In this document: positions 979 to 57,804 of the stretch, piece after piece
Layout of the letters: each line of letters starts with the position of its first letter
Numbering within the stretch: the first letter of the stretch is position 1
The notes under the pieces: generated by a model
What the model was told of the DNA's origin: nothing
Database searches by the model: none
The model's input: only the letters and a program-made list of their open reading frames with translations
Made by a program: the position numbers and the translations under genes
Virus record (IMG/VR): IMGVR_UViG_3300033156_000312
Location: 18,046-82,045 of that record
Origin: a virus
DNA length: 64,000 nt
Strand: one strand, 5' to 3'

Positions 979-2868
979 ATGCAATATAAACAAATAATTC
1001 TATCAAAGCTTATTGACTATTTAAAGTATAAAAAAATCAAATTGAGTCGAGGGCATATAAAGACTTTTTCTTGTCCTTTTTGTGGCAAGACAGCAACATT
1101 ATTACCAAACTCTCATTATGTAAATTGTTTTTTTTGTCGTCCTAAAGAAAATTTTGGAGAATATTTTACAGTTATAGATATTGCAAGAAAATTGGATAAA
1201 CCAGATGCTTCAGATGAAGAAATCTTACAATATCTTAAAGATATATTAAACATTAAAGTAATGACAAAACAAGATGAAGTAAAAGTAGAAGATATATTAA
1301 AGAAATATCAAGAATGGGGGTTCGATTTAGTTCCAATAGTTACTAATGGAAAAATTCCCGCAGAAAAAGAATGGACAAAGAAAACCCATAAAGATATAAA
1401 TGAATGGATGCGATGGATAAAAGACGGTCTTAACATAGGAGTTAAAACGGGAAAAGTAAGCAATATTATTGTAGTGGATATAGACCAAAAACCAATACCA
1501 AATGAAATCAAAAATTTATTAAGAGATGATAGCACTTTTATTCAAGAAACAACAAAGGGCTATCATTTATTTTATAAATATGACTCTGACTTACCAAAAA
1601 CTCGTATAGATGAAATCAAAATAGATATAGAGAATGATGGTGGGCAAGTTGTGATATATCCTTCGAGAATTAAAGATAAGGAAAGAAAAATTCAACAATT
1701 TGGAAAGATAGCAGAAATGCCCGAAGAATTAAAAGAATATCTAAAGAAACAAATGACCGTCCCTCGCAAAACTCAAAGTGAAAAGATAAGTGAAGATATA
1801 CAAACAGAAGATTTTAATTTAGGGGTATTGGGAGAAGGACAAAGAAATTCATCTTTAGTAAGAATAGGTGGAATTTTGAGAAAAGAACTTAATAAAAAAC
1901 AAACCGAGTATACTTTACATATGCTTAATAAAGTTTTATGTAAACGACCTCTCCCCGTCAAAGAAATGCGAGCTATGATAAATAGCTTAGATAAATATAC
2001 TCACTTTGATGAAAAAGAGTTGGCTCATAAAGTATTAGAATATTTGAGAGACATAGAAGAAGCTAATAGAAATGAAATTGCTATGGCAATAGTAGGAACT
2101 AATCGAGGAGAGGAAAAAAAGAGAATAGATAAAGCTCTACAATATTTGGTTAAAGAAAGATATGTATCTAAAATAGGGAGAAGTTATTCCATTCGAAAAA
2201 AAGTAGAATGGAAAGAAACTTTGATTAATATAGGAGTTCCGATTGATTTTCAAATGCCATATTTTTATGATTTAATGCACTTTCATTTTGGAGATTTAAT
2301 TATTATCGGGTCAAGAAACGCTACAGGAAAAACTCATATAGCCATGAATATAGTTAAACAATTAGTTGAACAGAAAATTACTCCTTATTATCTTTCTCTT
2401 GAAGGTGGTTCAAGATGGGCAAAAATAGCACTACAACTCGGATTAAAAGAAAGAGATTTTAAGTGGGAAGAAACTTCTAATCCTAATAATGTAGAATTAG
2501 AACAAAATGCTATTACTATAATTGATTGGTTATGTCCAAAAAGTTATGCAGAAACAGATAAAATATTACAAAACTTAAATGATAAAGTGCGTGAAACTAA
2601 AGGAATATTAATTGTTTTTGTTCAGTTACGAGATAATAACGAATGGTTAGCTAAAGATTTAATAAAACAATTCCCTGCTTTTGCTTGTAGATATATTTAT
2701 GATAATGAAGATAGTGGAGAATATGGCAAATTTAAAATAGACAAATTAAGAGATGCTAAAATACGTATTAAAAGTTATGAATTACCAGCATATTATAATT
2801 GGGAAACTAAAGAACTCATATTAGTTTCAGAATTAGAACAAAAAAAGAAATTAGAAAATGAAGAATAA
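979..2868 (+). CDS. Primase-polymerase (Prim-Pol/AEP) with N-terminal Zn ribbon, PriCT-like region and C-terminal RecA-fold helicase-like domain
   Basis: CPFC..CFFC; NIGVKTG..IIVVDID; TTKGYHLFY; GQVVIYPS; GEGQRN; Walker A-like GSRNATGKT; Walker B-like IIDW. Confidence 0.85.
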   Translation: MQYKQIILSKLIDYLKYKKIKLSRGHIKTFSCPFCGKTATLLPNSHYVNCFFCRPKENFGEYFTVIDIARKLDKPDASDEEILQYLKDILNIKVMTKQDEVKVEDILKKYQEWGFDLVPIVTNGKIPAEKEWTKKTHKDINEWMRWIKDGLNIGVKTGKVSNIIVVDIDQKPIPNEIKNLLRDDSTFIQETTKGYHLFYKYDSDLPKTRIDEIKIDIENDGGQVVIYPSRIKDKERKIQQFGKIAEMPEELKEYLKKQMTVPRKTQSEKISEDIQTEDFNLGVLGEGQRNSSLVRIGGILRKELNKKQTEYTLHMLNKVLCKRPLPVKEMRAMINSLDKYTHFDEKELAHKVLEYLRDIEEANRNEIAMAIVGTNRGEEKKRIDKALQYLVKERYVSKIGRSYSIRKKVEWKETLINIGVPIDFQMPYFYDLMHFHFGDLIIIGSRNATGKTHIAMNIVKQLVEQKITPYYLSLEGGSRWAKIALQLGLKERDFKWEETSNPNNVELEQNAITIIDWLCPKSYAETDKILQNLNDKVRETKGILIVFVQLRDNNEWLAKDLIKQFPAFACRYIYDNEDSGEYGKFKIDKLRDAKIRIKSYELPAYYNWETKELILVSELEQKKKLENEE

Positions 2869-3769
2869 AAAATTAAATCAATATATAATATCAGCTAAAA
2901 AGTTAATCAACATGCCTTATAATCAATTAAATTTAGCTAATTACAAGAAAAAATTTGTTAATATTTATAAATTAAAAAATATACACTTTATAAATACTTC
3001 TTCTAAAAAACCTATTAAATTAATGTCTGGACAATCTAAAAATGCAGGTATTATTGCTTCTTCAATTCCATCTTCCAAAAGAAATATTTATTTAATAGGT
3101 AAGGGGATTTTATTTGATGCAGGAGGATATGATTTAAAATCTTCTGGAAAAATGAATAATATGAAATGTGATATGAGCGGAATGGCAATAGCATTTGCTG
3201 TATCTTCTTATTTTAAAAATAATAATGTAATCGCTTATTGTCCTGTCGCTACAAATTTTATACATAATAACCAAATTACTCCTGGCGATTACATCAAGAT
3301 AGGAAATAAAACTGTAGAAATAACAAATACAGATGCAGAAGGTAGATTAATTTTAGCTGAAGCATTAAGTCAACTTACTGTTGAAAAGAATGATATAATT
3401 ATAACAATAGCTACTTTAACAGGAGTATGTGCTTATGCTATTGGAGAAAAAGCAACCGCTTTTATGACTCCAACTAAAGAATTTACTCATAAATACAAAC
3501 TTGCGAGCAAAAAAGCAAACGAACTTGCTTGGAGACTTCCATTATGGGACTATTTACAAAAATCTTTTAATAAAAAAAGAATAACGAATACTTCTAAGGA
3601 AAAATGTGGGACTATTATGGGGGGAATGTTCCTAAAACAATTTATTCCAAACCCCAAAAATTGGATTCATCTCGATATAGCTTATTCGGCTTATGATAAC
3701 AAAAAAAATAAGGCGACTGGAGAACCTATAATGAGTTTAGTTTACTTTGTTGAGGAGTTATTGAAATGA
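2858..3769 (+). CDS. M17 leucyl aminopeptidase, catalytic domain only
   Basis: GKGILFDAGGYDLK, MKCDMSG, NTDAEGRLILAE, ATLTG, WRLPL, WIHLDIA. Confidence 0.9.
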   Translation: MKNKKLNQYIISAKKLINMPYNQLNLANYKKKFVNIYKLKNIHFINTSSKKPIKLMSGQSKNAGIIASSIPSSKRNIYLIGKGILFDAGGYDLKSSGKMNNMKCDMSGMAIAFAVSSYFKNNNVIAYCPVATNFIHNNQITPGDYIKIGNKTVEITNTDAEGRLILAEALSQLTVEKNDIIITIATLTGVCAYAIGEKATAFMTPTKEFTHKYKLASKKANELAWRLPLWDYLQKSFNKKRITNTSKEKCGTIMGGMFLKQFIPNPKNWIHLDIAYSAYDNKKNKATGEPIMSLVYFVEELLK

Positions 3770-7432: not shown

Positions 7433-7843
7433 ATGGATAGCGGAAATATACATAAGGTCTGGGGAACAAGAAGAAGAATACTTTTAACAAATACTATAGA
7501 ATTAGATTTGCTTCATTTAAAGAAAGATACTTTTTGTAGCACACATTCTCACAAATCTAAAATTAATCTATTTACTGTTATTAAGGGAAAAGTTAGGATT
7601 GAAACGGAGTTTGGAAGAATTATCTTAAAGAAAAATGAATCTTTTGAAGTTAGACCGCCATTAAAACACCGTTTCGTAGCTTTAATGAATAGTATAATGG
7701 TTGAAACTGCTTATGTAAATAATGGAAAGATAGATACAAATGATATTAATAGAAACGTCTTAGGGGGAAGAATTATTAAAGGAAAATATATTAGTATTCC
7801 CGAATTAAGAAAAAAAGGATATTTGGAATTAAATAATGAATAA
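7433..7843 (+). CDS. Cupin-domain protein (sugar isomerase/epimerase-like)
   Basis: HKVWG, CSTHSH..K...F.V..G, P...HRF..E cupin motifs. Confidence 0.75.
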   Translation: MDSGNIHKVWGTRRRILLTNTIELDLLHLKKDTFCSTHSHKSKINLFTVIKGKVRIETEFGRIILKKNESFEVRPPLKHRFVALMNSIMVETAYVNNGKIDTNDINRNVLGGRIIKGKYISIPELRKKGYLELNNE

Positions 7844-14077: not shown

Positions 14078-14386
14078 ATGGATATATTAATTTATGCACA
14101 ACCAGAAAAAGTAGAACATAAAATGAAAGACAAAGTTTCTTCAGATATTATTTATTGCTATTGGACAGTTTCTATTCACCCTAACTTAAAAACTAAAGTT
14201 GTTAATAAAGTCTATTTTTCTGATGGAAATCATATTTATGCTCAAGGAGATTATATTGGTAATGATTATGAATTTACTGATGATGGAGAAAAGAAAGTTA
14301 TATATTTTGAGCCATTAGAGAGAGTTAATCTTAAACAACCTAAAAAACCCCCTACAAGAGGATGGTGTTATATTAATGTTAATTAG
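14078..14386 (+). CDS. Hypothetical protein (possible PUA/ASCH-like fold)
   Basis: AGGAG SD; YW..VYF..RGW.Y pattern. Confidence 0.5.
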   Translation: MDILIYAQPEKVEHKMKDKVSSDIIYCYWTVSIHPNLKTKVVNKVYFSDGNHIYAQGDYIGNDYEFTDDGEKKVIYFEPLERVNLKQPKKPPTRGWCYINVN

Positions 14387-15836
14387 ACGTATAGTATTAA
14401 AAAATTTTAAATGTTTCATAGAAAAAGACGAATATTTCGAACATTCTGTCTTAATTCGTGGTTCTAATGGGTCAGGTAAGAGCACCTTAGCTCTTCAGAG
14501 CATACTTTTTGCATTATACGGGTATTCTCTTTCGGAAACATTAAAAGACTTACCTACACGAAATATAGCGAAATCTTGCTCTGTTGAAATAGAATTTAAG
14601 CATAATAATAAATATTATAGAATTCTTCGGTTATATCCATCCAAGTTGACGATTTTTGAGAATAATAAGCAATTACAATTTACTACTTTAACAGAAGCTC
14701 AAGATTTCATCAATCTTACTTTTGGAGACCGTCTTAATTTTATGAAATTTCGTATAGTGGATGCTTATTCTAAAGATACTAATTTTTTAGATGAAGGGCC
14801 GACAACTCTAAAACAGATTATATTTTCTGCTTCTGAAGATACATTTAATAATATAAGAAAAAAACTCTTACAAATTAAAACAGAGAGAGAAATCTACAGT
14901 AAAAACAGAGCAATAATATATACTCATTATCCCTCCACAAAACGCTTACAACTTATATGTAGTAAATTAGAAGAATTAGAAAAACAAGATAGAGAGTTAA
15001 GAAAGACGATTAGAGATATTGAGATTGGGTTAAACACTGCACAGAGAGAAATTGGAAGATTAGAAGGAGAAAAACAAACTTTAAAGTATAAACGAGATAA
15101 GATGTTATCAAATACTAAATGTTATGCTTGTGGTCAAGCTATTTCAGAAAGTCATCAAAAATCGTTACTTTCCGAAATAGGAGCTCGCACTAAAAAAATC
15201 AATAATCGCATAGGTCATCAGACTACAGAAATTGAATTTTTGAATGATATTATAGGTCAGCATAAAAGAGTTAAAGATAATATAGAGGTAGAAATGGTTG
15301 TTTTAAGAGACTTAAAATTGAAACTTCAAACTCGCATGAAGCAAAGTGATTATAAATATACAGAAAAAGATATATTAATAGTAAAAAGAGCTATACAAGA
15401 AATAGATAGACTGTCTACTTATTATTTAACTGAAAGCGTTAAAATATTAGAACCAATTATAAATGATGTATTAGCAAAAATTAATTTTCAAGTTCGATTT
15501 GAAATAGATGATAAAAATAAATTCAGAATCACTCTACAAAAAGATGAAGTAGAATACAAATACAAAGATTTATCAACGGGACAAAAACTTATATTACAAA
15601 TCGCTTTCAAACTCGCTATATTATTGGAACGAGGAGAGACAGGTCTGATAGTGGCAGATGAAGGGATGTCCTCACTTGACAGAGAAAATCTTGAGCATAT
15701 ATTAGGATTATTTCACAATTTACCTTTTCAATTATTTCTTGTCATCCATCGACTGGATGATATACCTTCTTTTATAAAAGTGATAGATTTGGACAAGGAG
15801 GAAATCAATGATAATAAGAAATCGAATAAAATGTAA
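14376..15836 (+). CDS. Rad50/SbcC-like SMC ATPase
   Basis: LKNFK, Walker A GSNGSGKS, coiled coil with CYAC hook, LSTGQ signature, Walker B IVADE, H-loop. Confidence 0.92.
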   Translation: MLIRRIVLKNFKCFIEKDEYFEHSVLIRGSNGSGKSTLALQSILFALYGYSLSETLKDLPTRNIAKSCSVEIEFKHNNKYYRILRLYPSKLTIFENNKQLQFTTLTEAQDFINLTFGDRLNFMKFRIVDAYSKDTNFLDEGPTTLKQIIFSASEDTFNNIRKKLLQIKTEREIYSKNRAIIYTHYPSTKRLQLICSKLEELEKQDRELRKTIRDIEIGLNTAQREIGRLEGEKQTLKYKRDKMLSNTKCYACGQAISESHQKSLLSEIGARTKKINNRIGHQTTEIEFLNDIIGQHKRVKDNIEVEMVVLRDLKLKLQTRMKQSDYKYTEKDILIVKRAIQEIDRLSTYYLTESVKILEPIINDVLAKINFQVRFEIDDKNKFRITLQKDEVEYKYKDLSTGQKLILQIAFKLAILLERGETGLIVADEGMSSLDRENLEHILGLFHNLPFQLFLVIHRLDDIPSFIKVIDLDKEEINDNKKSNKM

Positions 15837-16827: not shown

Positions 16828-16962
16828 AGATGTTCAAACCTTTTTTTGTATGTATTGTGGACATATTTGGCAATTAATTTGCAGAGACAGATTTATTACA
16901 GATGATGAATTTAAAGAATGGATAGAAAACGTCAAAAAAGAACATGAGGAAAATTGCGACAA

Positions 16963-17334
16963 ATGATTTTGTATCACCCATCAGACCGAAAATTCAATAT
17001 TGTAAAAGTAAAATATTTTGGAGAACATTATTATACTTTAAATGACATGAAAATATCTCCAGTTCCTCGAACTTTTTGGTATAACGAATTACCGATTTCA
17101 GAAAATAGATTTAAATCATCTCAATTTATTTATGTAGCAAAAGTGAATAAAAAACGGATTTATGATTTAAGAAAAGATAAAAATAACTTATTAGAGAAAT
17201 TTAGATATAGAGGATTACATGGGCTTTTATTATATTTGAAGAAAAGGTATTTAGGTGTTATATATCAAGTGCAAGAATTTAATTTAGTCGCAATTTTTAA
17301 AGATATAAAACCTATAAGGAGAATAGAAAAATGA
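16963..17334 (+). CDS. Hypothetical protein, possible ADP-ribosyltransferase-like fold
   Basis: LYHPS..YFG..PRTFWY..E..Y....IYDL pattern. Confidence 0.35.
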   Translation: MILYHPSDRKFNIVKVKYFGEHYYTLNDMKISPVPRTFWYNELPISENRFKSSQFIYVAKVNKKRIYDLRKDKNNLLEKFRYRGLHGLLLYLKKRYLGVIYQVQEFNLVAIFKDIKPIRRIEK

Positions 17335-18341
17335 AAAATATTGTTTATGCCCCAGGAGTTTTCGATATGCTTCATATTGGACATATTCAATATCTTCAAA
17401 AAGCAAAAACTCAAGGAGATTATTTAATTGTAGGAGTGCAAAGTGATAAAGGTGTAGAATCTATGAAAGGAACGAAACCTATTCTATCTGAGAATATAAG
17501 AATGCAAACAATAAAAGCTTTAGAATGTGTAGATGATGCTTTTATATATGAAGATACTAATTATATATACCATGCAAAAAGAGCAAATGCTAAAATATTT
17601 TGTTTATCTACTCAACATAAAGAAGCTGAACGTTTTAAAGAATTAGTCAAATATATGAGAGACATAGGAGGGAAAATAGTATATATCTCTCATATGAAAG
17701 GTATATCTTCTACTGCGATTAAAGATAAAGTTAAAAATGAATGGAAATCTGTTTGGGAAAGAGTCGCCTCTTCTGATAAAAATGATATAGAAGTAAATGG
17801 AGGATATAATCAAATAGGAGAAAAAAATGCTGTTAAATTAGCATTATACTTAACTGATAAATTTGCAATTAGACAAGAAGATAAAGTTTTAGATTATGGG
17901 TGTGGAAGTGGAATTATTTTACAGAAATTAAGATGTCAAAAATATGGTATAGATATATCTCCCAGCATGATAGAAAGAGCTATCAAAAATAATCCATCTG
18001 GACTTTTTGCTGTTGGAGATGATATAATAATGAGAGGACATTATAATTATATTATTTGTCATGGCACTGTTCAATATTTCTCTAATACTGTTTACGCTTC
18101 TCATATTTTTTTAGAGATGAAGCGTTATGCAGACTGTGTAATTATTTGTGATATTCCTGACGAAGCAAAAAAAGAACAACGAGAGAGGTATAGAAGAGAA
18201 CGAGGAATGAATTCTTATCCCCCTCATTTATATTATTCTCGTGAGTTTTTTAGAAATTTAGATTTTGAAACTTTTGACAATGAAATATCGATAACAAATA
18301 ATAAAAATTACGGTTTTTATGCAGTGTGGAGACGAAAATGA
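17331..18341 (+). CDS. TagD-like cytidylyltransferase fused to class I SAM methyltransferase
   Basis: GVFDMLHIGH, LIVGVQSD, ISSTAIK; VLDYGCGSG, GIDIS..MI. Confidence 0.88.
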   Translation: MKNIVYAPGVFDMLHIGHIQYLQKAKTQGDYLIVGVQSDKGVESMKGTKPILSENIRMQTIKALECVDDAFIYEDTNYIYHAKRANAKIFCLSTQHKEAERFKELVKYMRDIGGKIVYISHMKGISSTAIKDKVKNEWKSVWERVASSDKNDIEVNGGYNQIGEKNAVKLALYLTDKFAIRQEDKVLDYGCGSGIILQKLRCQKYGIDISPSMIERAIKNNPSGLFAVGDDIIMRGHYNYIICHGTVQYFSNTVYASHIFLEMKRYADCVIICDIPDEAKKEQRERYRRERGMNSYPPHLYYSREFFRNLDFETFDNEISITNNKNYGFYAVWRRK

Positions 18342-18721
18342 TGCGTTATTGGTTATTTATAGGACGTTGGAGTCCTTTTCATAATGGACATAAGTATATA
18401 ATAGATAGTTATGTCAATACAGGGAAACCAGTCTGTATTGCTGTGCGAGATAGCAAAGAAAAATATTCTACTGCATTAAGAAAAATGATGATTGAAGCTG
18501 TTTATAAGAAAGAAATTGAAGAAGAACGAGTAAAAGTCATTATTATTCCTGATATAGAAGGAGTTGCAGTTGGAAGAAAAATTGGATATTCAATCATTCA
18601 AGTTCCTGATAAAATTAAAAATATTTCTGGAACAAAAATCAGAGCTGGACAATTAAATGATGTTCCTTCAGAAGTGCAAAAAATTTTAGATGAATGGAAA
18701 AAATATAACGAATCTCGATAA
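18326..18721 (+). CDS. Small HxGH nucleotidyltransferase (candidate minimal ATP sulfurylase; NadM-like alternative); start probably 18338
   Basis: FIGRWSPFHNGH, VGRKIGY, ISGTKIR. Confidence 0.7.
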   Translation: METKMMRYWLFIGRWSPFHNGHKYIIDSYVNTGKPVCIAVRDSKEKYSTALRKMMIEAVYKKEIEEERVKVIIIPDIEGVAVGRKIGYSIIQVPDKIKNISGTKIRAGQLNDVPSEVQKILDEWKKYNESR

Positions 18722-18756
18722 ATGATTTTATATGAATTATCGAAAAGAGATTTTAA

Positions 18757-19545
18757 ATGAGAAAAAGAATAAATAAATTACCGAGCTTTTTGATTATAGG
18801 AATGGCAAAATGCGGAACAACCAGTTTATATAATATGTTAATTCAACATCCAAAAATTCAACCCGCCAAAAGAAAGGAATTATATTTTTTTGAAAAAGAT
18901 GATATATATGAAAAAGGGATAAATTTTTATAGAAAACAATTTAATTCTTGTGCAGAAGATGAAATTTGTGGAGAAGCGACTCCTTATTACTTATATTACA
19001 AAAAGACTCCTGCAAGAGTTAAAAATCTTCTTCCTAATGTAAAATTGATAGTATTATTAAGAAATCCAATTACTCGAAGTTACTCTCATTTTTATGGATA
19101 TTTAAGATTATGTAAAAAGAAAAAGCAAATTCCCATAGCATTAACTTTGAAAGAATTTTTAGAAAAAATTGAAAAAAATCCAGAAGTTAAACTTAATTAT
19201 AGAGGACAAAATTTTCTGAAGAAAAGTATATATGTAGATATGCTCAAACATTGGTTTAAATATTTTTCAAGAAATCAAATTATGATTATTAAAAGCGAAG
19301 ATTTTTTTAAATCCCCTCAATTGATTACGAATACTGTATTTGAATTTTTAGGTCTGTCAAAATATAACGTAAAAATAAGACATGACTTAAAAACCGAAGA
19401 AATGAATTTGGTATTATTAAAAGTCAGGAGATATGCTAAATTATCACAATTTGTCATAGATTATTTGAAAAATTATTATGCTCAATATAATAAACGACTA
19501 TATCAATTAATTGAACGAGACATGAATTGGGAGAATGAAATATGA
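18757..19545 (+). CDS. PAPS-dependent sulfotransferase (heparan-sulfate-ST-like family)
   Basis: 5'-PSB FLIIGMAKCGTTSL, KE..FF, GEATP.Y, 3'-PB LLRNPITRSYS. Confidence 0.92.
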   Translation: MRKRINKLPSFLIIGMAKCGTTSLYNMLIQHPKIQPAKRKELYFFEKDDIYEKGINFYRKQFNSCAEDEICGEATPYYLYYKKTPARVKNLLPNVKLIVLLRNPITRSYSHFYGYLRLCKKKKQIPIALTLKEFLEKIEKNPEVKLNYRGQNFLKKSIYVDMLKHWFKYFSRNQIMIIKSEDFFKSPQLITNTVFEFLGLSKYNVKIRHDLKTEEMNLVLLKVRRYAKLSQFVIDYLKNYYAQYNKRLYQLIERDMNWENEI

Positions 19546-20285
19546 AACTAAAAAAAATCAATAAAAAAACATTTAGTTGGCAAGGAATAGCTTATAGAAT
19601 TTTCGTTATTGGTGTTAATGCTATATTTTTTAAAGTTGGAGCTAAACAAGCTATGCAACAATATGGTGCTATTGGAGCTTCTTTGATTTGGAATAGTATT
19701 AATATGATATTATATTTTTTATATCATGGAGTATTTTTAAGATTATTTTCTTTACGAATTGAAACTAATGGGACTGTAATTTGGTTTACGGGACTAAGTG
19801 GAAGCGGAAAAACTACGATAAGTGATAAATTAGCACAAGAACTATTACAAAGAGGATATAAAGTCCAAAAATTAGATGGAGATATATTAAGAAAAACAAT
19901 CAATAAAGATTTAGGATTTTCATTGGAAGATAGAAAAATCAACTTAGAACGTGCTATTGCAATTGCTAAAATATTAGCAGAAAATAAAATTATAGTATTA
20001 TGTTCTTTTATTTCTCCTGATAGAAATATAAGAAATAAATTCAGAAAACAAATAAAAAATTTCATAGAGATTTATGTTAATTGTCCTTTATCGATTTGTA
20101 AACAACGAGACCCTAAAGGATTATATCGACAGGCATGTGCAGGGAGAATATCGAATTTTACGGGAATTTCTCAAAAATATGAGCCTCCTTTACATCCACA
20201 TATAGAATTAAAAACTGATTTGGAAAGTATAGAAAATAGCACAAAAAAAATTATGAATTATTTAAGAATTCAAAAATTAATTTGA
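19542..20285 (+). CDS. cysC: Adenylyl-sulfate (APS) kinase with N-terminal membrane domain
   Basis: WFTGLSGSGKTT, LDGD, DLGFS.EDR, SFISP, RDPKGLY, NFTGIS..YEPP; hydrophobic first ~70 aa. Confidence 0.92.
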   Translation: MKLKKINKKTFSWQGIAYRIFVIGVNAIFFKVGAKQAMQQYGAIGASLIWNSINMILYFLYHGVFLRLFSLRIETNGTVIWFTGLSGSGKTTISDKLAQELLQRGYKVQKLDGDILRKTINKDLGFSLEDRKINLERAIAIAKILAENKIIVLCSFISPDRNIRNKFRKQIKNFIEIYVNCPLSICKQRDPKGLYRQACAGRISNFTGISQKYEPPLHPHIELKTDLESIENSTKKIMNYLRIQKLI

Positions 20286-20289
20286 GACA

Positions 20290-20907
20290 GTGATGAAAAC
20301 TAAAAAACGTAATCGCAAAGGCAAAAATAACAGTAATTATATAGATGGAAGATGTTTAAAAAAGCATTACTGTAAAGATTGTGGAAAAAAGATTTCTTTA
20401 CAAACTGCTATATATGGAAAAGGAAAATGTAATTCTTGTTCTCATATAATACACGGAGAATATTTAAAAGTTCATTATTGTATAGATTGTAATAAAGAAA
20501 TAGGAAATAGAGCTACAAGATGTAGAAAATGTGCAGACAAATTACATAGCGAAAGAATGTCAACTAAGTTGAATTATTTTGCTGGAAAACACTTTACAAA
20601 AGAAAAAAACCCGAATTGGCAATATGGACTTTCATTTGAAGAATATGGTGCAGAATTCGATAATGCTCTCAAAGAACAAGTAAGACAAAGAGACCATTAT
20701 AAGTGTAGAATTTGTGGATGTAGTCAAGTAGAGAACGAAAGACAGTTAGATGTTCATCATATTGATTATGATAAGAAAAATAACGATATGAACAATCTTT
20801 TGACTTTATGTGTGCATTGTCATAGAAAGACCAATCACAATCGAGATTATTGGTTTGCTTATTGTCGATATATTATTTCATATTTAAAAAGAAATAAGTT
20901 AATATAA
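20290..20907 (+). CDS. HNH endonuclease with Zn-finger repeats
   Basis: CxxC repeats, RD.Y.C..CG, LDVHHIDYDK.NN...NL.TLC..CH. Confidence 0.9.
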   Translation: MMKTKKRNRKGKNNSNYIDGRCLKKHYCKDCGKKISLQTAIYGKGKCNSCSHIIHGEYLKVHYCIDCNKEIGNRATRCRKCADKLHSERMSTKLNYFAGKHFTKEKNPNWQYGLSFEEYGAEFDNALKEQVRQRDHYKCRICGCSQVENERQLDVHHIDYDKKNNDMNNLLTLCVHCHRKTNHNRDYWFAYCRYIISYLKRNKLI

Positions 20908-21491
20908 TGAATATAACAAACACCAAAAAATTCTTATTTGAAATAGCGGATGTGCTTGAGAAACACAATATAGAATTTTGTATATTTGCAGGCAATCTTT
21001 TAGGTTTAATTAGAGACGGAGATTTCATTCCATGGGATAAAGATATTGATTTAGCAGTGCGAACTCGCTTTTGGAACGATACTAAATTATTCAAAAAAGT
21101 TGCTGAAGATTTAATAAGAAAAAATATTTCACTTGATTATATTTGGAATAATGATATTTTAAGAATAGGAAAATATGGAATTCCTTGTCATATTATTTAC
21201 TTACGAAAAAATAATAAAGAATATTATCAATATGCAAATTCAGGGAAACATAGTTTCCCTTTAGAATGTATGAATACTTTTGATGAAATAAAATTTTGCG
21301 GAAGAAAATTTAAGATTCCTCATAATTCAAAAAAGTTATTAGAAAACACTTTTGGGAAATCATGGAAAATTCCTATGAAAGAATCAGCATGCAAAAGATT
21401 AAATAAAACTAAACTAAATTGGAAATCAGTAATTAATAAAGACAGATTTCATCTGAATTATATTATACCGTTTTTTGAGGAGGAACAATGA
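20907..21491 (+). CDS. LicD-family phosphotransferase
   Basis: GNLLGLIRDGDFIPWDKDIDL; P......L...FG..W..P. Confidence 0.88.
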   Translation: MNITNTKKFLFEIADVLEKHNIEFCIFAGNLLGLIRDGDFIPWDKDIDLAVRTRFWNDTKLFKKVAEDLIRKNISLDYIWNNDILRIGKYGIPCHIIYLRKNNKEYYQYANSGKHSFPLECMNTFDEIKFCGRKFKIPHNSKKLLENTFGKSWKIPMKESACKRLNKTKLNWKSVINKDRFHLNYIIPFFEEEQ

Positions 21492-22117
21492 GATATGTCA
21501 TAGGATTTGGGACAGGAAGAAGCGGAACAGTATCTCTCGCTAAATTGCTTAATGATTGTAAAAATGTAAACGTATCTCATGAATTTAGAGATAGAGGAGT
21601 TTATCATAGATTATCATGGAAGTTTAAGCAAAACGAAGCTAAAGAGAGATTAGATAATTTGAGAAAATTAGAAGGTAAATTAGTAGGAGATGTTGCACAT
21701 TATTATTTGAACTATATAGATTATTTTGTAGAAAAATTAGAAACAGATATTAAATTTGTGCTTCTTGGAAGAGATGCCGAAGAAACTGTCAAATCATTTA
21801 TGAAGAAATCAAGAGGATTCAATCATTGGATGTCTCCTCATACAAAAGTATTTAAAGATGGCAAATACAGACATATAGATTGGGATAGAACATTTCCAAA
21901 ATATAATGATGCCACATCAAAGAGACAAGCTATTTCTTTCTATGTAAATCATTATTATATTAGATGTATGGGATTAATAGGTCTATACCCAAAACGAATA
22001 TTTCTATTAGATATAAAAGAAATAAATAATAAGAAAAAACAAAAAGAACTATTTGATTTTCTTGAAATTCCCGAAGAAGATAGAGTATATCAGAGAATTT
22101 GGGAGAATAAATCATGA
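21488..22117 (+). CDS. Second sulfotransferase-like P-loop protein
   Basis: IGFGTGRSGTVSL, SHE, L.R....V.SF, LFDFL. Confidence 0.75.
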   Translation: MRYVIGFGTGRSGTVSLAKLLNDCKNVNVSHEFRDRGVYHRLSWKFKQNEAKERLDNLRKLEGKLVGDVAHYYLNYIDYFVEKLETDIKFVLLGRDAEETVKSFMKKSRGFNHWMSPHTKVFKDGKYRHIDWDRTFPKYNDATSKRQAISFYVNHYYIRCMGLIGLYPKRIFLLDIKEINNKKKQKELFDFLEIPEEDRVYQRIWENKS

Positions 22118-22680
22118 ATCCTACTATAAAAGATATACAAAAACTAATGAACAATAAAACAATTTGTCTAATTGGCAACTCACGGTCTATATTGAAGAAT
22201 GAAAAAGATATAGATATATATGATGTTATTTGTAGATGTAATAGAGGAAAACCTCAAGGAAAATCTAAATATATAGGTAGTAGAACAGACATATTATTTT
22301 TATCAACGAAAATAGATGGAGTCAGATTACAGAGAAACTTTAATCCCCGATTCATAATCTGGCTCCCCCCTGGGCGAAAGCGAGTTACACCTTTCGTAAA
22401 AAACAATGCCTATTTCGTGCCCAAAGAAGAATGGCAAATATTATACGATAAACTTTCTGGAGAATATCGTCCTTCAACAGGACTTATGGCTTTGAATTTT
22501 ATACTAAATCATCTTGAATTTAAGAAGCTCATTATTTACGGATTTGACTTCTTCAAATCTGGGACATGGTATCATCAAATAAAGAGCGGAGTGCATGAAG
22601 CTCATAATCCAGAAGAAGAGAAAAAGATAATAATAGAAATGATTAAGAATCGACCAAACGTGGAAATGAGAATAGAATGA
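22114..22680 (+). CDS. GT29 (sialyltransferase)-like glycosyltransferase
   Basis: Sialyl-L-like ICLIGNS..ID.YD.ICRCN..GSRTD; S-like PSTGLMA..YGFDFF; VS-like H....E. Confidence 0.8.
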   Translation: MNPTIKDIQKLMNNKTICLIGNSRSILKNEKDIDIYDVICRCNRGKPQGKSKYIGSRTDILFLSTKIDGVRLQRNFNPRFIIWLPPGRKRVTPFVKNNAYFVPKEEWQILYDKLSGEYRPSTGLMALNFILNHLEFKKLIIYGFDFFKSGTWYHQIKSGVHEAHNPEEEKKIIIEMIKNRPNVEMRIE

Positions 22681-23291
22681 TAATAATATCTTATGCAACT
22701 AAAAATACTCCTTATATGCAAGTAATTGAGCAAAGATTAAAACCTACTTTAAAGAAATTTAAGCTTAAATATGATATAGAATATCCAGAAGATTTTGGTT
22801 CATGGCAAGAAAATACTCATTATAAAGCCGAATTTATCAAGAAGATGCTTCTAAGACATAAAGAAGCTGTCTGTTTTATTGATTCTGATGCTACTATAGA
22901 AAAATATCCTAAATTATTATATAAATTACAAGACTACGATATGAGTTTACATTATCTTGATTTTGATTTACAATGGAGAAAAAAATCAGGCACAAAACGA
23001 GAAGCTCTTAGTGGCACTTTATATTTAAATTATAATGAAAAAATGTTGAAATTTCTTGATGACTGGATAGCTGAAAATGAAATCGATGCTCAATGGGAAC
23101 AAAGAAATATGCAAAAAGTATTGGAAAGATGGAAAGATAAATTGAGAATATATCCTCTCCCATACGAATATATAGTTATAGTATATGGGGGAGATAGAAT
23201 ACCTTCTCATATGGTCAAAAAAGAAGATGTAGTAATTCTCCATCATCAAGCGTCCAGACGTTATAGAAATTGGAAACGGAGAAAAAAATGA
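22677..23291 (+). CDS. GT-A nucleotide-diphospho-sugar transferase
   Basis: K..FI..L, DSD (DxD), SG..Y, EQ, LP.EY, HHQASR. Confidence 0.75.
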   Translation: MIIISYATKNTPYMQVIEQRLKPTLKKFKLKYDIEYPEDFGSWQENTHYKAEFIKKMLLRHKEAVCFIDSDATIEKYPKLLYKLQDYDMSLHYLDFDLQWRKKSGTKREALSGTLYLNYNEKMLKFLDDWIAENEIDAQWEQRNMQKVLERWKDKLRIYPLPYEYIVIVYGGDRIPSHMVKKEDVVILHHQASRRYRNWKRRKK

Positions 23292-23653
23292 TTTTAATGA
23301 TATGTGCTATAATAACAAATATAGGAGATTATGTTACTACATTAATAGGATTTCATTTTGGTTGCACTGAAGCAAATCCGTTAGCAAGATGTTTATTTAA
23401 AATTCCGATTATAGCATTTTTGATTAAGATACCATTAGTAACCTATTGGTTAATTACAGGAAATAGTTTATTACATTTAATAGCGACTATTTTGCTCGGT
23501 TTTTGTTGTATTAATAATATAATTCAAATTATGAAAATGAGGAGAGTAATAAAATGGATAAGCCAAGCCAACTCATTATCATTGGGGGCGGCCCGTCTAT
23601 ACGTGAAGGAATTAGTAAGGGTCTATGGCAAAGAATACAAAATAAATTTGTAA
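23270..23653 (+). CDS. Membrane protein (DUF5658-like); start probably 23288
   Basis: D..TT..G....E.NPL motif and three hydrophobic helices. Confidence 0.6.
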   Translation: METEKKMILMICAIITNIGDYVTTLIGFHFGCTEANPLARCLFKIPIIAFLIKIPLVTYWLITGNSLLHLIATILLGFCCINNIIQIMKMRRVIKWISQANSLSLGAARLYVKELVRVYGKEYKINL

Positions 23654-24246
23654 TAGGAATCAATTTCTCCTATAAGTATCACAAAGACCCCACAATTCAA
23701 TGTTTTCTCGATTGGAAATTTTTTCAACAGAATAAAGAAGAAATGTTAAAGCTTCCTTTGATAGTTACAAAAAAACATAACAAGATTTCTGGTAATAATA
23801 TGATTTATTTACGACCTACAACTAATTATCGTAGAGATTTAAGTAGTGGGGCGTGGAAGGGTTCTTTAACAGGTATTTATGCTGTCTCTTTAGGGATTTA
23901 TTTATTAGATGAAGGGACAATTTTTTTGTTGGGCTACGATTTCGATGGCATTTCACAGAAGGATTCAAAAAAACCTCTTACACATTATTTTCAGGGACAA
24001 TATAAACATAATGGGGTAGGAAAAGTGAGTTATTATAGAACTAAAGGCAAAGCTCAAAATGATTTTCATCCGTTCGCTAAAGAGAAAAAAGTTAAGATAT
24101 ATAATGTCTCTCTAAATAGTAAGATACCACAATTTGAGAAGATAAGTTACGATAAATTCTTTTCTCTTTTAAATAATAAAAAATATAATCAAGTAGTATT
24201 ACGAGAGTGGATTAAGAATAAATTAAAAGGAAAACCTGAGAAATAG
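23554..24246 (+). CDS. Maf/DUF115-like (GT29-related fold) transferase
   Basis: IIGGGPSI, VIGIN, F.D, TG..A...A-like, IFLLGYD, IYN.S..S. Confidence 0.65.
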   Translation: MDKPSQLIIIGGGPSIREGISKGLWQRIQNKFVIGINFSYKYHKDPTIQCFLDWKFFQQNKEEMLKLPLIVTKKHNKISGNNMIYLRPTTNYRRDLSSGAWKGSLTGIYAVSLGIYLLDEGTIFLLGYDFDGISQKDSKKPLTHYFQGQYKHNGVGKVSYYRTKGKAQNDFHPFAKEKKVKIYNVSLNSKIPQFEKISYDKFFSLLNNKKYNQVVLREWIKNKLKGKPEK

Positions 24247-24423
24247 TTATATCTAAAGGAGGTAAGAAAATGAATAGAAGAAAAACTGAAAAATTGATGC
24301 GATTAAAAGGATGTGAAGACTGTAAAAATTTAACTTGTCTCTGGAATAGTGAAGTAGCCACTAAAAGTGTGGCAAATGTTTTTACATCTAAATATAATTG
24401 TAATACAAGTAAAAGGAAATAAA

Positions 24424-24894
24424 ATGGAAATAAAAAGAGGAGATTTAATTCTTCTATATTATAGATTCGACCCTATTGCTTGGCTTATTAGAAGAAAAAC
24501 ACATAGCAAATGGAATCATATAGGAGTAGCATTGCATGGAACTAAAATTATAGATTTAAGAGCTACTAAGCTTCGCTATGCAAAGATTTCTCGCTTTACT
24601 AAAAGCTGTATTTATAAAATCAAAATCTTACGCATTAAAAATTTAACTCCAGAAATAAGAGAACATTTAATTAACACTCTTGCGAAACAATCAGAAATAA
24701 GACATTATTTCAAGATGTTGTGGAAATTTTTTCTGATGTTCTTCAATATCCCTACTGATATTTGTCTTAGTTGCTCAGAAGTAATCGCACAAGCATTAAG
24801 AGAGAAGAATATAGACATTTGCTCTGGAAAAGATGTGCGATTGATTACTCCCGAAGATTTTAACAAAAGTAAAGAGGTCTATCATGTCTCCTAA
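24424..24894 (+). CDS. Permuted papain-like (YaeF/YiiX, C92) amidase
   Basis: GDLIL, I...T.S.WNH.G, CSE..A, TPED. Confidence 0.75.
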   Translation: MEIKRGDLILLYYRFDPIAWLIRRKTHSKWNHIGVALHGTKIIDLRATKLRYAKISRFTKSCIYKIKILRIKNLTPEIREHLINTLAKQSEIRHYFKMLWKFFLMFFNIPTDICLSCSEVIAQALREKNIDICSGKDVRLITPEDFNKSKEVYHVS

Positions 24895-25558
24895 AATAGC
24901 AATTCTTGTTCCATGTTACAATGAAGAAAATCATATTAACAATATGATTTCTAAATTAAATAAATTGTCGTTACCTTATTTGTTTGTAAATGATGGTTCT
25001 ACAGATTGCACTCATAAAATTCTACATAGTATTCAATGCCCTTATATTGAGTATTATCCAAACAAAGGCAAAGGATATGCCATAAAAAAAGGAGCTAAAC
25101 ATTTAATAGCTCAAGGATATGATTATATTTTGATTATAGATTCAGACGAACAAAATGATATGAATGATTATTCACAATTTGTGAATGTTTTAAAAATACA
25201 TCCAGATGCAAAAATTGTTATAGGAAATAGATTTCATAACCCTCAAAACATGCCAACTATAAGATATTATACTAATAAATGCATGTCTTGGATTATATCC
25301 AAATTAGCTCATCAAAAAATAACAGATACTCAATGTGGGTTTAGATTAGTGCATAAAGAGGTATTTAAAATAAGAACAAAAAGTTTACGATTTGAATACG
25401 AATCCGAACAATTAATCAAAGCTGGAAGAAAAGGATATAAAATAGTATCGACTCCTATCAAATGTATTTATTTTAAAGATAGAAAATCCAAAATTAGACC
25501 TTTACAAGATACATTCAGATTTTTTAAAATGTTATTAAATATTTATTTAATAAAATAG
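24884..25558 (+). CDS. GT2 glycosyltransferase (DPM1/GtrB-like)
   Basis: VPCYNEE, VNDGSTD, NKGKG.A, DSD.Q, IGNR, DTQCGFR, FE.E.E. Confidence 0.9.
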   Translation: MSPKIAILVPCYNEENHINNMISKLNKLSLPYLFVNDGSTDCTHKILHSIQCPYIEYYPNKGKGYAIKKGAKHLIAQGYDYILIIDSDEQNDMNDYSQFVNVLKIHPDAKIVIGNRFHNPQNMPTIRYYTNKCMSWIISKLAHQKITDTQCGFRLVHKEVFKIRTKSLRFEYESEQLIKAGRKGYKIVSTPIKCIYFKDRKSKIRPLQDTFRFFKMLLNIYLIK

Positions 25559-55958: not shown

Positions 55959-57791
55959 TTATCCTCTCTTATTCTTTTTGTCAAAAGCTTGTTCTATTTC
56001 TGCCTTTTCTATCTCTTCAATTATTTCTACTATTTGGGCTTTAGTTAAACTCTTTTTTCTTATCCACTTCTTACCACTTTTCTTATATTTAAGTTTAACA
56101 TTCCTCCAAGCACTTTGTCTTGCTTTGTTTTCATCTTTAGTTTCTCTATAAACAGCATTAAAAGTTTTTATCCATATTCTTCTTGCCCCTACTGGGAGAC
56201 TTTTTAATTGTGCAGGGTAATTTTTTAAAGTATAAGGAGCCGTTATTAAATCAGGATTTTTGCTTTTGATTAAATCTATTTGAGTTACAGCTTTTCCACA
56301 TTTAGGACATTTAACCCAGCCCATTCCTGCTTCAGTTTCAGTAAGCATATCAAAAATATTTCCGCATTTTTTGCATTTTGCAAATGCTTCCATTTTTCCA
56401 ATATCATAATTTTTCTTTTCTGGGCCTTTCTTATCATCAGGAATTTCATCTTCTTCTGTATCTAAATCGGCAGGTAAATCTATCCCTTGACCTTCTCGAT
56501 TTTCTCTCACAGGAGGATATAATTTTTCGCTAATGCCTTCCGCCTCTTCCTTCTCTCTTCTATGAACCTCTGTTTTGAAATCAACTTCAGCAATCAATTC
56601 TACTGCCGTTTGAGATGATATTCTACCTCTATCATAAAGAGAACGAATAAGAGTTTTGAAATCTTCAGTCATAAACCCTTTAACGGGAGAAGAACTTATA
56701 TAGAAATTACCATTCATATATTTTATGTGACTTTTGTTTTTTTCTATGATTAGAAGCACTAATTGTTTTAGAATCTGTTTAAAATCTTCTACACCAGTTT
56801 TTACTTCTTCTATAAATACTCTTGGATTTAGGACACTTTCTCTTCTTGATGTCGAAACTGCTTCTACTACATCTATAAATCCAAGTCCTGCAAGTATATT
56901 CTTTTCTGCTACTACAAATAAATCTCTATTAAATAATTTTGCCAAATCTGGAATTACATCTTCAATCGTTTCATCAAATTGAGTAACTCTCATAGGAGAT
57001 TTTACATTTTTTTCTCCTATCTTTGTAGTTTTCAAATCATTCATTAAATCTTGGAATTGTTTTTTAACTTGTAGTAATTCTTCATCACTATAAATTTTGA
57101 TATTATTTCTTGCTAATTCTGCTGAACCCTTTTTAATCAATCTCATATAAGGAATTACCTGTTCAAGCAATTCTATCTCTTTGTTTTTTAGAGATTGTAT
57201 AATTTTCCAGTTGTGATAAACGCCTCTCTTTATTAGATATGGAGTAGGGTATTTATCAAACCATCTCCCATAAGGTCGAGAGAAGATATAACCATTATCC
57301 ATTTTAGTCTCCATACTCTTCCCTAAATAATAATCATAGCTTCCAATAGTCAATACGTCATCATCTTTCACATCTTTAGCGTGAATACTCTCTCCATCCA
57401 CAAAAAACATCTTTGTAGGAAGAATAATTCCATTCTTAGTAGATTCCCATTTAGAGACTCGAAGAACTGGAAAGGAAGAATATTTCCATCGTTCTTTAAA
57501 ATATTCTTTTGCTAAAGGCTTGATTCCTACAGGAGTTTTACCATTATACCCTTTATTAAGAACAAATAACCACTCCTCTAATATTTTGGTAAATCTTTCA
57601 TTATCTGTTTCAATATTAAAGTCCACACAAGCAGTATTTACCGCAAAATCTGTCAAAGAATCAACCAACCCAGAGACATCATCTTCTTGCATTGTTCTCA
57701 CAACTTTTACTTGATTGTGATAATCACTGGGCACAGTGATTTTCTTTAACATCATTGATAATACATAATTAAGATATAAAGAAGTATCCAT
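55959..57791 (-). CDS. Portal protein with C-terminal Zn ribbon and ChaB-like domain (ATG 57791)
   Basis: Directly after terminase; AGGAG SD; CKKC..CPKC; LP.GAR.IW..TFN.VY....DE..A...AW..VK..YKK....W. Confidence 0.75.
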   Translation of the reverse strand: MDTSLYLNYVLSMMLKKITVPSDYHNQVKVVRTMQEDDVSGLVDSLTDFAVNTACVDFNIETDNERFTKILEEWLFVLNKGYNGKTPVGIKPLAKEYFKERWKYSSFPVLRVSKWESTKNGIILPTKMFFVDGESIHAKDVKDDDVLTIGSYDYYLGKSMETKMDNGYIFSRPYGRWFDKYPTPYLIKRGVYHNWKIIQSLKNKEIELLEQVIPYMRLIKKGSAELARNNIKIYSDEELLQVKKQFQDLMNDLKTTKIGEKNVKSPMRVTQFDETIEDVIPDLAKLFNRDLFVVAEKNILAGLGFIDVVEAVSTSRRESVLNPRVFIEEVKTGVEDFKQILKQLVLLIIEKNKSHIKYMNGNFYISSSPVKGFMTEDFKTLIRSLYDRGRISSQTAVELIAEVDFKTEVHRREKEEAEGISEKLYPPVRENREGQGIDLPADLDTEEDEIPDDKKGPEKKNYDIGKMEAFAKCKKCGNIFDMLTETEAGMGWVKCPKCGKAVTQIDLIKSKNPDLITAPYTLKNYPAQLKSLPVGARRIWIKTFNAVYRETKDENKARQSAWRNVKLKYKKSGKKWIRKKSLTKAQIVEIIEEIEKAEIEQAFDKKNKRG

Positions 57792-57804
57792 ACTTTGTCT
57801 CCTT

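Follow-up and report, generated by a model that had tools for sequence, protein, structure and literature searches.

Where does a virus that is equipped to sulfate sugars obtain its activated sulfate? The question is raised by a gene block in the virus record IMGVR_UViG_3300033156_000312 (IMG/VR), of which positions 18,046 to 82,045, the final 64 kb of an 82,045-bp record, were analyzed (hereinafter the window; coordinates refer to it unless a locus is named). The block encodes a kinase of adenosine 5'-phosphosulfate (APS), the enzyme family that produces the donor of sulfate, 3'-phosphoadenosine 5'-phosphosulfate (PAPS), together with sulfotransferases and glycosyltransferases. The original prediction, made from the sequence alone, described it as a self-contained phage pathway for a sulfated, phospho-substituted glycan. 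The sulfation/glycan block is real; most likely, its products generate activated sulfate for the virus's own use and attach sulfate as well as phospho-alcohols to a glycan chain. The new point of the present analysis is that the first step of sulfate activation appears to be assigned to a previously unrecognized enzyme, a small HIGH-motif nucleotidyltransferase (hereinafter mini-NTase).

A possible enzyme for the initial step of sulfate activation

The kinase of the block is an APS kinase by family, and its activity is predicted on this basis: it scores 209 bits against TIGR00455 (cut-off 138.7), possesses the P-loop GLSGSGKTT, and matches the adenylyl-sulfate kinase of Synechocystis (PDB 5cb6) at 3.5e-48 (167.5 bits) and the chains of bifunctional PAPS synthases at 1e-34 to 1e-40. 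The genomic context of this gene was examined in the relatives of the virus. The terminase has 311 metagenomic homologues (E <= 0.001), some of them with inteins, and an alignment of 24 terminase homologues led to 42 IMG/VR loci; the clade considered here comprises 17 long relatives (G001-G017), nine of which are at least 90% complete, and the genome of the virus itself (G000), 18 genomes altogether. Neither the PAPS_reduct family (CysH/CysD) nor Sat (PF01747) is found in any of the 18, including the 82-kb record, in searches that did not extend to cysI and cysJ. Given that no canonical ATP sulfurylase or PAPS reductase is present, the APS kinase can be assigned to sulfation, and in each of G000, G001, G002, G008, G014, and G017 the kinase is accompanied by at least one sulfotransferase. 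The original proposal that cysC here serves sulfation and not sulfur assimilation is thus upheld.

The first sulfotransferase of the block (ST1) is, by family, full-length homology and motifs, a true-looking PAPS-type enzyme. It scores 58.9 bits against the Sulfotransfer_1 profile (cut-off 22), and residues 5-258 of its 262 align with heparan sulfate 3-O-sulfotransferase 5 (PDB 3bd9, 6.5e-26). The segments AKCGTTS and LRNPITRSYS of ST1 align with RKGGTRA and VREPTTRAIS of 3bd9, the 5'-phosphosulfate-binding (5'-PSB) and 3'-phosphate-binding (3'-PB) motifs, respectively, and the glutamate of GEATPYY, presumably the catalytic base, aligns with that of IEKSPAYF (EKSP motif). The 2062 homologues of ST1 include proteins named from Bacillus, cyanobacteria and Brocadiaceae, the bacterial members being ~40% identical to it; among GenBank phages, just one Vibrio phage was matched, weakly, and a single-protein scan of IMG/VR with ST1 gave no match. 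The likeness to a heparan sulfate enzyme is all that the term "proteoglycan-like" of the original prediction could refer to, and the term is not supported beyond it.

The mini-NTase is encoded directly before ST1. Its only relatives in the PDB detectable with the single sequence are archaeal nicotinamide-mononucleotide adenylyltransferases (NMNATs; 3e-3), and its score against CTP_transf_like (19.7 bits) is below the 21-bit cut-off. When the profile of the mini-NTase family is compared with the PDB, archaeal NMNAT comes first (1.3e-13), followed by PPATs; the NMNAT match involves only the N-terminal 78 of the 123 profile positions. Against the NMNAT family model TIGR01527, the mini-NTase scores 24.7 bits, far below the cut-off of 181.2, and only the N-terminal half aligns. 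The motifs G-R-x-x-P-x-H-x-G-H and I-S-x-T-x-x-R are common to the mini-NTase and archaeal NMNAT (MJ0541; PDB 1f9a, 1ej2), whereas the invariant IAIRD and GRxVGY are the mini-NTase family's own. Common to 40 single-domain members are GRWQPxHxGH, IAIRD, IPDI, GRxVGY, ISGTxIR and four invariant arginines.

The distribution of the mini-NTase follows that of APS kinase. Within the clade, it is encoded in all five genomes with a whole APS kinase gene (the genome under study, G001, G002, G008, and G014; the contig of G017 starts inside the kinase gene) and missing in the 12 relatives where no APS kinase passes the cut-off; one match at 1e-3 within a 650-aa open reading frame (ORF) was taken as noise. 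A search of 1.84 billion representative sequences yielded 587 matches, of which the best 150 were examined: 66 of these are at least 219 aa long, and 61 of the 66 carry an APS kinase part, the domain order being mini-NTase-kinase in 17 and kinase-mini-NTase in 44. The fusion proteins are ~270-320 aa in length, and the Pfam APS_kinase domain was confirmed in 48 of the 52 that were scanned. A survey of 185,579 species genomes identified 105 relatives, and in the 80 cellular loci that were kept, an APS kinase gene lies within 300 nt of the mini-NTase in 71 cases and in the same frame in 60. The cellular holders include Omnitrophota, Planctomycetota, cultured Halobacteriales, Saccharibacteria, Poseidoniia, Acidobacteriota, and Chlamydiia. 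Among the 184 relatives in IMG/VR, 80 viral loci were kept, and APS kinase is found within 5 kb in 56 of these, at no more than 300 nt in 50. In 9 of 18 cellular loci, the fusion has sulfotransferase genes beside it (one of the nine also contains a gene for a CysQ-type phosphatase), and sulfotransferases lie within 3 kb in 6 of 17 viral loci. In the ESM Atlas, the stored model of the mini-NTase adjoins the nucleotidyltransferase domain of APS kinase fusions from Thermoplasmatota and Methanobacteriota, proteins that bear automatic names only.

The adenylylation of sulfate is a strongly unfavourable reaction, and fusions or complexes with APS kinase are repeatedly encountered among known ATP sulfurylases. 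The bifunctional PAPS synthases (metazoan PAPSS, Aquifex Sat-CysC, PDB 2gks, and CysNC) join an enzyme that adenylylates sulfate to the kinase, by fusion or coupling, which pulls the unfavourable first step forward, as the phage pair would; however, the partner in these synthases is a ~390-aa Sat fold with a PUA-like domain, or CysD/CysN, whereas that of the phage kinase is an NMNAT-like protein of 120-130 aa. Furthermore, 14 of 20 cellular genomes with the mini-NTase and kinase pair encode neither Sat nor CysD, and this set contains all nine haloarchaeal isolates and also one complete chromosome. On comparative evidence only, both features expected of an ATP sulfurylase are observed, namely coupling to the kinase and occurrence in genomes that encode no other such enzyme. 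Taken together, these observations suggest that the mini-NTase, to which the original prediction assigned no role, is probably the APS-forming enzyme missing from the pathway. It is also somewhat better than an even bet that the family represents a third, so far unrecognized kind of ATP sulfurylase that would have evolved from adenylyltransferases of the NMNAT type and, together with the kinase, would form a minimal PAPS synthase of ~290 aa that serves to sulfate glycans in many viruses, haloarchaea, Thermoplasmatota, Omnitrophota, Planctomycetota and candidate-phyla bacteria. In the searched literature on ATP sulfurylase/APS kinase fusions and haloarchaeal PAPS, which did not extend to subscription journals and supplements, no title or abstract describes the mini-NTase.

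Several observations weigh against this assignment. The mini-NTase of the window has no PF01747 match and falls outside the Sat family; the 60 listed of the 88 PDB matches of its family profile include no Sat; and PF01747 is detected in only 2 of 52 mini-NTase/kinase fusions, marginally (1.6e-4 and 1.8e-4). Because the Sat profile fails, the mini-NTase is not classified as Sat, and the claim is that it works like an ATP sulfurylase, not that it is one of the known enzymes. No APS kinase is encoded nearby in 24 of the 80 viral and 8 of the 80 cellular loci, and 6 of the 20 genomes with the pair also contain Sat (two), CysD above the cut-off (two) or a CysD-like gene (two). Finally, G004 encodes two sulfotransferases and neither the kinase nor the mini-NTase, which implies that host PAPS can suffice. 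Host supply is at the core of the alternative under which sulfation is real, APS comes from a host ATP sulfurylase, and the mini-NTase serves the synthesis of NAD or another nucleotide cofactor. The cases of G004 and of the six genomes with Sat or CysD-type genes are compatible with this possibility, as are the identity of the closest solved relatives, the NMNATs, and the presence of an NAD synthase gene in the G002 island. Nevertheless, we consider it unlikely because an NMNAT role explains neither the fusion to the kinase in both orders in 61 of the 66 long homologues nor the strict co-occurrence of the two genes in the clade. Moreover, the match to NMNAT is limited to the ATP-binding half, the mini-NTase being ~50 residues shorter than the matched chains (168-181 aa), and all nine haloarchaeal isolates encode a separate true NMNAT (252-263 bits), so that the mini-NTase is not needed for NAD synthesis in these organisms.

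A second alternative is that the mini-NTase and the kinase make an analogue of PAPS (a nucleoside diphosphate-X 3'-phosphate), from which the sulfotransferase-fold enzymes move X instead of sulfate. Such chemistry has a precedent in the O-methyl phosphoramidate pathway of Campylobacter jejuni, where nucleotidyl transfer comes first and a homologue of APS kinase then phosphorylates the 3' position (Cj1415-Cj1418), yielding CDP-phosphoramidate 3'-phosphate for capsule decoration (PMC11800397). In contrast to that pathway, the block contains no glutamine kinase or amidohydrolase (domains of these types are found in none of 14 ORFs searched with Pfam and NCBIfam, two of which have no family), and its kinase and ST1 resemble true sulfate enzymes, the former being above the NCBIfam cut-off for APS kinase and the latter aligning end to end with PAPS-using heparan sulfate sulfotransferases, with the PAPS motifs kept. 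In addition, the nearest relatives of the mini-NTase, NMNAT and PPAT, use ATP and not CTP, and a PiT-type transporter gene adjoins the kinase gene in G008. A PAPS analogue thus appears quite improbable. Still less credible is the notion that cysC is an ordinary auxiliary gene boosting sulfur assimilation by the host, with its glycan-related neighbours there by coincidence: adenylylsulfate kinase is indeed named among viral auxiliary genes in several metagenome papers, but PAPS/APS reductase and Sat are missing throughout the clade and the kinase is always found among sulfotransferases.

Some further regularities were observed around the mini-NTase/kinase genes. B12-binding radical S-adenosylmethionine (SAM) enzymes and methyltransferases repeatedly adjoin them, as in the Omnitrophota loci L099 and L112 and the G001 island (L072:15376-18256). 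In haloarchaea, a sulfotransferase-domain gene (407-434 aa) is located upstream of the kinase-NTase fusion in all five loci, immediately so in four and with one ORF between in L129, and a YqcI/YcgG-family gene follows the fusion in four of the five scanned (L120, L121, L130, L131). In a Lewinellaceae locus (L141:3006-4097), a DUF4915 propeller gene is found two genes (~1.3 kb) upstream of the fusion.

Gene content of the block

The record has a G+C content of 30.6% and an estimated completeness of 87% (CheckV). It represents a tailed virus, with a structural module that encodes tape measure, tail and baseplate proteins on the minus strand (PHROGs) and a replication module on the plus strand that includes a prim-pol/helicase, a family B polymerase, RecA, and RuvC. 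The glycan block is located between the two, with the structural module running convergently from position 25543, and consists of 13 co-directional plus-strand ORFs (17331-25558; Table 1), most of which overlap their neighbours by 1-22 nt (the 12 junctions, in order, are -16, +35, -4, +4, -1, -4, -4, -4, -22, -100, +120, and -11 nt). A preceding 126-aa ORF, which belongs to no family in Pfam, PHROGs or NCBIfam, may be inferred to be a member of the operon solely from its 4-nt overlap with the first ORF of the block. The signal in a promoter/terminator scan did not differ from that in shuffled sequence, and no tRNA genes are present in the 64-kb window. The packed operon listed in the original prediction proved largely right in profile searches, with two ORFs overlooked, those for the HNH endonuclease and the C92-like protein.

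Table 1. ORFs of the glycan block and its left flank (window coordinates)
Product	Coordinates	Strand	Supporting evidence
SbcC/SMC-like ATPase, left flank of island	14376..15836	+	Pfam SMC_N 1.1e-12
126-aa ORF, TTG start	16954..17334	+	overlaps first ORF of block by 4 nt
Cytidylyl/adenylyl-transferase (residues 6-132) fused to class I SAM methyltransferase (~177-253)	17331..18341	+	CTP_transf_like PF01467 1e-17; Methyltransf_31 1.3e-7
mini-NTase, 131 aa	18326..18721	+	GRWSPFHNGH and ISGTKIR motifs
ST1, PAPS-type carbohydrate sulfotransferase	18757..19545	+	Sulfotransfer_1 6.5e-16
APS kinase with 70-aa hydrophobic N-terminal extension	19542..20285	+	PF01583 3.1e-55
HNH homing-type endonuclease, inserted in operon	20290..20907	+	PF01844 1.7e-4; ten PHROG HNH families, down to 1.5e-14
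LicD-family phosphotransferase	20907..21491	+	PF04991 5.4e-14
ST2, probable second sulfotransferase	21488..22117	+	Sulfotransfer_4 1.5e-4
Short GT29-like protein, 188 aa	22114..22680	+	PF00777 3e-8, 33.8 bits, residues 19-65 only (47 residues)
GT-A glycosyltransferase, Nucleotid_trans type, 204 aa	22677..23291	+	ESM Atlas only: score 0.99, TM 0.92 to mostly viral PF03407 clusters
Small membrane protein DUF5658	23270..23653	+	PF18902 5e-8; phrog_7761
Rossmann-type putative sialyl/Kdo-type transferase (Maf/MptE-like; weak)	23554..24246	+	phrog_4603 'alpha-2,3-sialyltransferase' 7e-8
C92-like permuted papain-fold protein	24367..24894	+	32% identity, 2e-27, to G002 Peptidase_C92 ORF
GT2, polyprenyl-phosphate (GtrB/AglJ/PpgS) type	24884..25558	+	PF00535 7e-17; phrog_841 'GtrB-like O-antigen conversion' 3.6e-24

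The N-terminal extension of the APS kinase is kept in G001, G002, and G014 and can be aligned to the DUF2061 portion of another viral protein, a DUF2061-APS kinase; the window kinase itself has no DUF2061 match in Pfam. Among GenBank phages, seven records match this kinase, and that of LR756500.1, a 462-kb uncultured phage, is 47% identical to it.

The second branch of the block would involve phospho-alcohols. The transferase domain of the first ORF is most similar in the PDB to human ethanolamine-phosphate cytidylyltransferase (3elb, 4.5e-18), followed by choline-phosphate cytidylyltransferase and TagD, and its 93.5 bits against rfaE_dom_II are below the cut-off of that model. Fusion of a cytidylyltransferase with a methyltransferase is rare, with 11 other proteins found to contain both domains. 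LicD scores 53.3 bits against Pfam (cut-off 22.6), and its top NCBIfam match is Mf1 cholinephosphotransferase (3.1e-22, below the cut-off). A cytidylyltransferase-type gene accompanies LicD here and in all four LicD-bearing relatives, which supports the pairing of the two enzymes and with it the TagD-type/LicD coupling envisaged in the original prediction. The product of the first ORF is accordingly a candidate donor synthase for LicD. Conversion of phosphoethanolamine into phosphocholine by the methyltransferase domain was considered and found to be unsupported: its PDB relatives are only generic, with phosphoethanolamine N-methyltransferase at an E-value of 0.21.

With regard to the remaining transferases, two sets of findings weigh against the assignments. 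First, ST2, which contains a P-loop-like GTGRSGT near its N-terminus (read from the sequence) and has no sequence relative in the PDB, scores 22.1 bits against Sulfotransfer_4, just below the 22.8 cut-off. Second, the GT29 and Maf-like assignments are weak. These two calls of the original prediction retain the PF00777 match, which is above the cut-off but spans only 47 residues, for the former and the phrog_4603 match, with no Pfam match even at an E-value of 1, for the latter. The GT29-like protein also weakly matches ST3Gal-I (PDB 2wml) in two stretches that resemble sialylmotifs L and S; the Maf-like ORF, whose annotated start overlaps the preceding ORF by 100 nt and may be located further downstream, shows weak local similarity (2e-4) to the MptE-like ORF of G001. 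The GT-A ORF has no Pfam match at 0.01. The GT2 at the end of the block matches AglJ (1.2e-22) and PpgS (2.8e-20) in NCBIfam, in both cases below the cut-offs. The C92-like ORF preceding it probably starts near 24424, and the Peptidase_C92 ORF of G002 likewise sits ahead of a GT2.

Under the proposed scheme, the mini-NTase would adenylylate sulfate to APS, which the membrane-anchored APS kinase would convert to PAPS, and ST1 and ST2 would use this donor to sulfate a sugar chain. In parallel, the cytidylyltransferase-methyltransferase fusion would yield a nucleoside diphosphate-activated, perhaps methylated, alcohol, from which LicD would move the phospho-alcohol onto the glycan. Four or five glycosyltransferases would contribute, with the GtrB/AglJ-type enzyme loading a sugar on polyprenyl phosphate, and the combined output would be an anionic glycan built or decorated during infection. 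Such a pathway would encode donor synthesis for sulfation and phospho-alcohol transfer but is only in part as self-contained as the original prediction had it: neither a CMP-sugar synthetase nor NeuB is encoded in the genome, so a nonulosonate or 3-deoxy-D-manno-octulosonate (Kdo) donor would have to be supplied by the host.

A variable island in a clade of tailed viruses

The virus is distant from the phages in GenBank, where the block gave no match in megablast and the terminase none in tblastn; a single-protein scan of IMG/VR with the terminase likewise returned no match. The location of the island in the clade is fixed: the same SbcC-like ATPase gene precedes it in all eight genomes with a visible flank (the genome under study, G001, G002, G004, G007, G008, G009, and G016; the G014 and G017 contigs begin within the island). 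The ATPase of the window shares 51% and 49% identity with the ORFs that immediately precede the G001 and G002 islands, respectively, and SMC_N or Rad50-type ORFs flank those of G004, G007, G008, G009, and G016. The gene content, by contrast with the location, varies. Above-cut-off APS kinase is encoded in five of the 17 relatives, Sulfotransfer_1 in six and LicD in four, and GT2 is present in 14 of the 18 genomes of the clade.

The islands of nine relatives were scanned with family profiles. Those with an APS kinase combine it with different sets of sugar-related genes. The G001 island includes the kinase, an MptE-like protein, a KpsC/S-type Capsule_synth protein, a sulfotransferase, two radical SAM enzymes, and a pyruvyl transferase, whereas that of G002 holds the kinase, UDP-glucose dehydrogenase, GT1, three or four sulfotransferases, and a C92-like protein with GT2, along with the NAD synthase gene mentioned above and a Laminin_G_3 lectin-type ORF. 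In G008, the mini-NTase, a PRK-like kinase, a PiT/PHO4 transporter, APS kinase, sulfotransferases, Capsule_synth and KDO8P synthase are encoded, and the G014 and G017 islands contain a nucleotidyltransferase, the kinase, three sulfotransferases, and an 880-aa triple glycosyltransferase. The G004 island (L074:7362-12241) includes a phosphonate pathway judging from its genes, namely a phosphoenolpyruvate (PEP) mutase-cytidylyltransferase fusion, a thiamine pyrophosphate (TPP) decarboxylase, an aminotransferase, an OCD-like enzyme, and two LicD proteins, next to its two sulfotransferases. The G007 and G009 islands encode an SDR, DUF2284, a TagD-like enzyme, and a LicD-GT2 fusion, and that of G016 IspD, an SDR, and a LicD-GT2 fusion.

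By comparison of gene content, the glycan locus is hypervariable, with sulfation, phosphonate, ribitol-phosphate, and capsule-type variants, and the block represents one of its alleles. The recurrence of its genes in the islands of related phages is what the original prediction had staked itself on. It appears reasonably likely that, in the block, the virus has its own variant of a hypervariable island for glycan building that characterizes a clade of tailed viruses with genomes of 80-105 kb, and that in this variant sulfation, phospho-alcohol and glycosyltransferase modules would together build an anionic glycan.

The PHO4/PiT-family transporter gene of G008 (L075:14701-15648) directly adjoins the APS kinase gene. 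The PiT family includes the sulfate permease CysP of Bacillus subtilis, and the G008 protein is a possible virus-encoded sulfate permease. Homing endonucleases or inteins are found in several islands; apart from the HNH endonuclease of the window (20290-20907), the mobile endonucleases are a NUMOD3/endonuclease I ORF in G001 (L072:11128-11850), a NUMOD3-HTH ORF in G007 (L078:3878-4861), and a LAGLIDADG domain inside the LicD-GT2 gene of G009 (L079:7723-10026). Such endonucleases may drive the exchange of cassettes at this site. A small cupin ORF recurs in the clade (window 7433-7843; G008, L075:4195-4596), and its location next to the KDO8P synthase gene in G008 suggests a role as a sugar-phosphate isomerase. 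Elsewhere in the window are genes for an M17 leucyl aminopeptidase (2858-3769; also in G004), a 632-aa ChaB protein with a C-terminal ChaB domain that adjoins the terminase (55959-57857), and a papain-family C1 peptidase that adjoins a C92 amidase (61259-62104).

Target of the glycan and comparison with known systems

The membrane anchor of the kinase, the polyprenyl-phosphate glycosyltransferase and LicD, together with the capsule-type and Kdo genes of the relatives, suggest that the target is a lipid-linked envelope glycan of the host cell, the proteins of the virion being the second candidate. The bacterial-type RecA and RuvC, the C92 and NlpC/P60-type proteins, and the KDO8P synthase and KpsC/S-type genes of the relatives hint at a low-G+C diderm bacterium as the host. 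A glycan attached to the virus's own structural proteins is a plausible but less likely alternative. The island abuts the structural module, Laminin_G_3 domains occur both in the G002 island and in a structural protein of the window (41057-43477), and virion glycosylation is known for mycobacteriophages; however, the polyprenyl-phosphate GT2, LicD, the KpsC/S-type genes, the KDO8P synthase of the relatives and the membrane-anchored kinase are in better agreement with lipid-linked polymers of the envelope. Hypermodification of DNA was set aside as a target: the HNH endonuclease is the only product of the block with any resemblance to an enzyme acting on DNA.

Bacteria possess glycan-sulfation cassettes, such as the rhizobial NodPQ-NodH. 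In this cassette and in the gene clusters for sulfated capsules in Vibrio sp. KMM 8419 and Cobetia marina, PAPS supply is encoded beside sulfotransferases and glycosyltransferases, as in the block; in contrast to these, the block is viral, its candidate for the first step is non-canonical, a LicD branch is joined to it, and it is an allele of a hypervariable island. Phage glycosyltransferases are known to alter a surface glycan, in Gtr-type O-antigen conversion, or the virion, in mycobacteriophages. The GtrB-like last gene of the block is shared with Gtr modules, whereas GtrA and GtrC have no family match among the 14 ORFs (Pfam, PHROGs, NCBIfam), such that the block does not qualify as a Gtr module. 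Compared with either of these systems, the block is far larger and adds donor synthesis, sulfation and phospho-alcohol transfer; sulfation is not described for either in the literature searched. Phospho-alcohol decoration by TagD/LicC-LicD and phosphonate tailoring by PntC-Ppm are known systems as well. There, as in the window, a cytidylyltransferase is paired with LicD, and the G004 and G016 islands are similar in this respect, but the cytidylyltransferase of the window differs from TagD/LicC in its fusion to a methyltransferase.

The statement in the original prediction that no phage system for glycan sulfation has been described is consistent with the literature searched, in which viral sulfotransferases appear only as auxiliary genes of unclear function: such genes are reported in predicted viruses of Patescibacteria (PMC12285232), and the function of phage sulfotransferases is said to "remain unclear" (PMC10580990). 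No paper that combines sulfotransferase with virion glycosylation was found among the matches listed.

If the proposed scheme is correct, viral cysC genes would no longer be read as helpers of sulfur assimilation since, here and in many viral contigs, they would belong to sugar-decorating loci. Haloarchaea carry sulfated surface glycans, and the mini-NTase would provide a testable route to PAPS in these and other organisms that possess an APS kinase but no known ATP sulfurylase. A two-domain PAPS synthase of 290 aa would also be useful for enzymatic sulfation. In the viruses themselves, the chemistry encoded at a single fixed position of the genome is swapped between sulfate, phosphonate, ribitol-phosphate and capsule types, which points to strong selection on a surface glycan in virus-host recognition.

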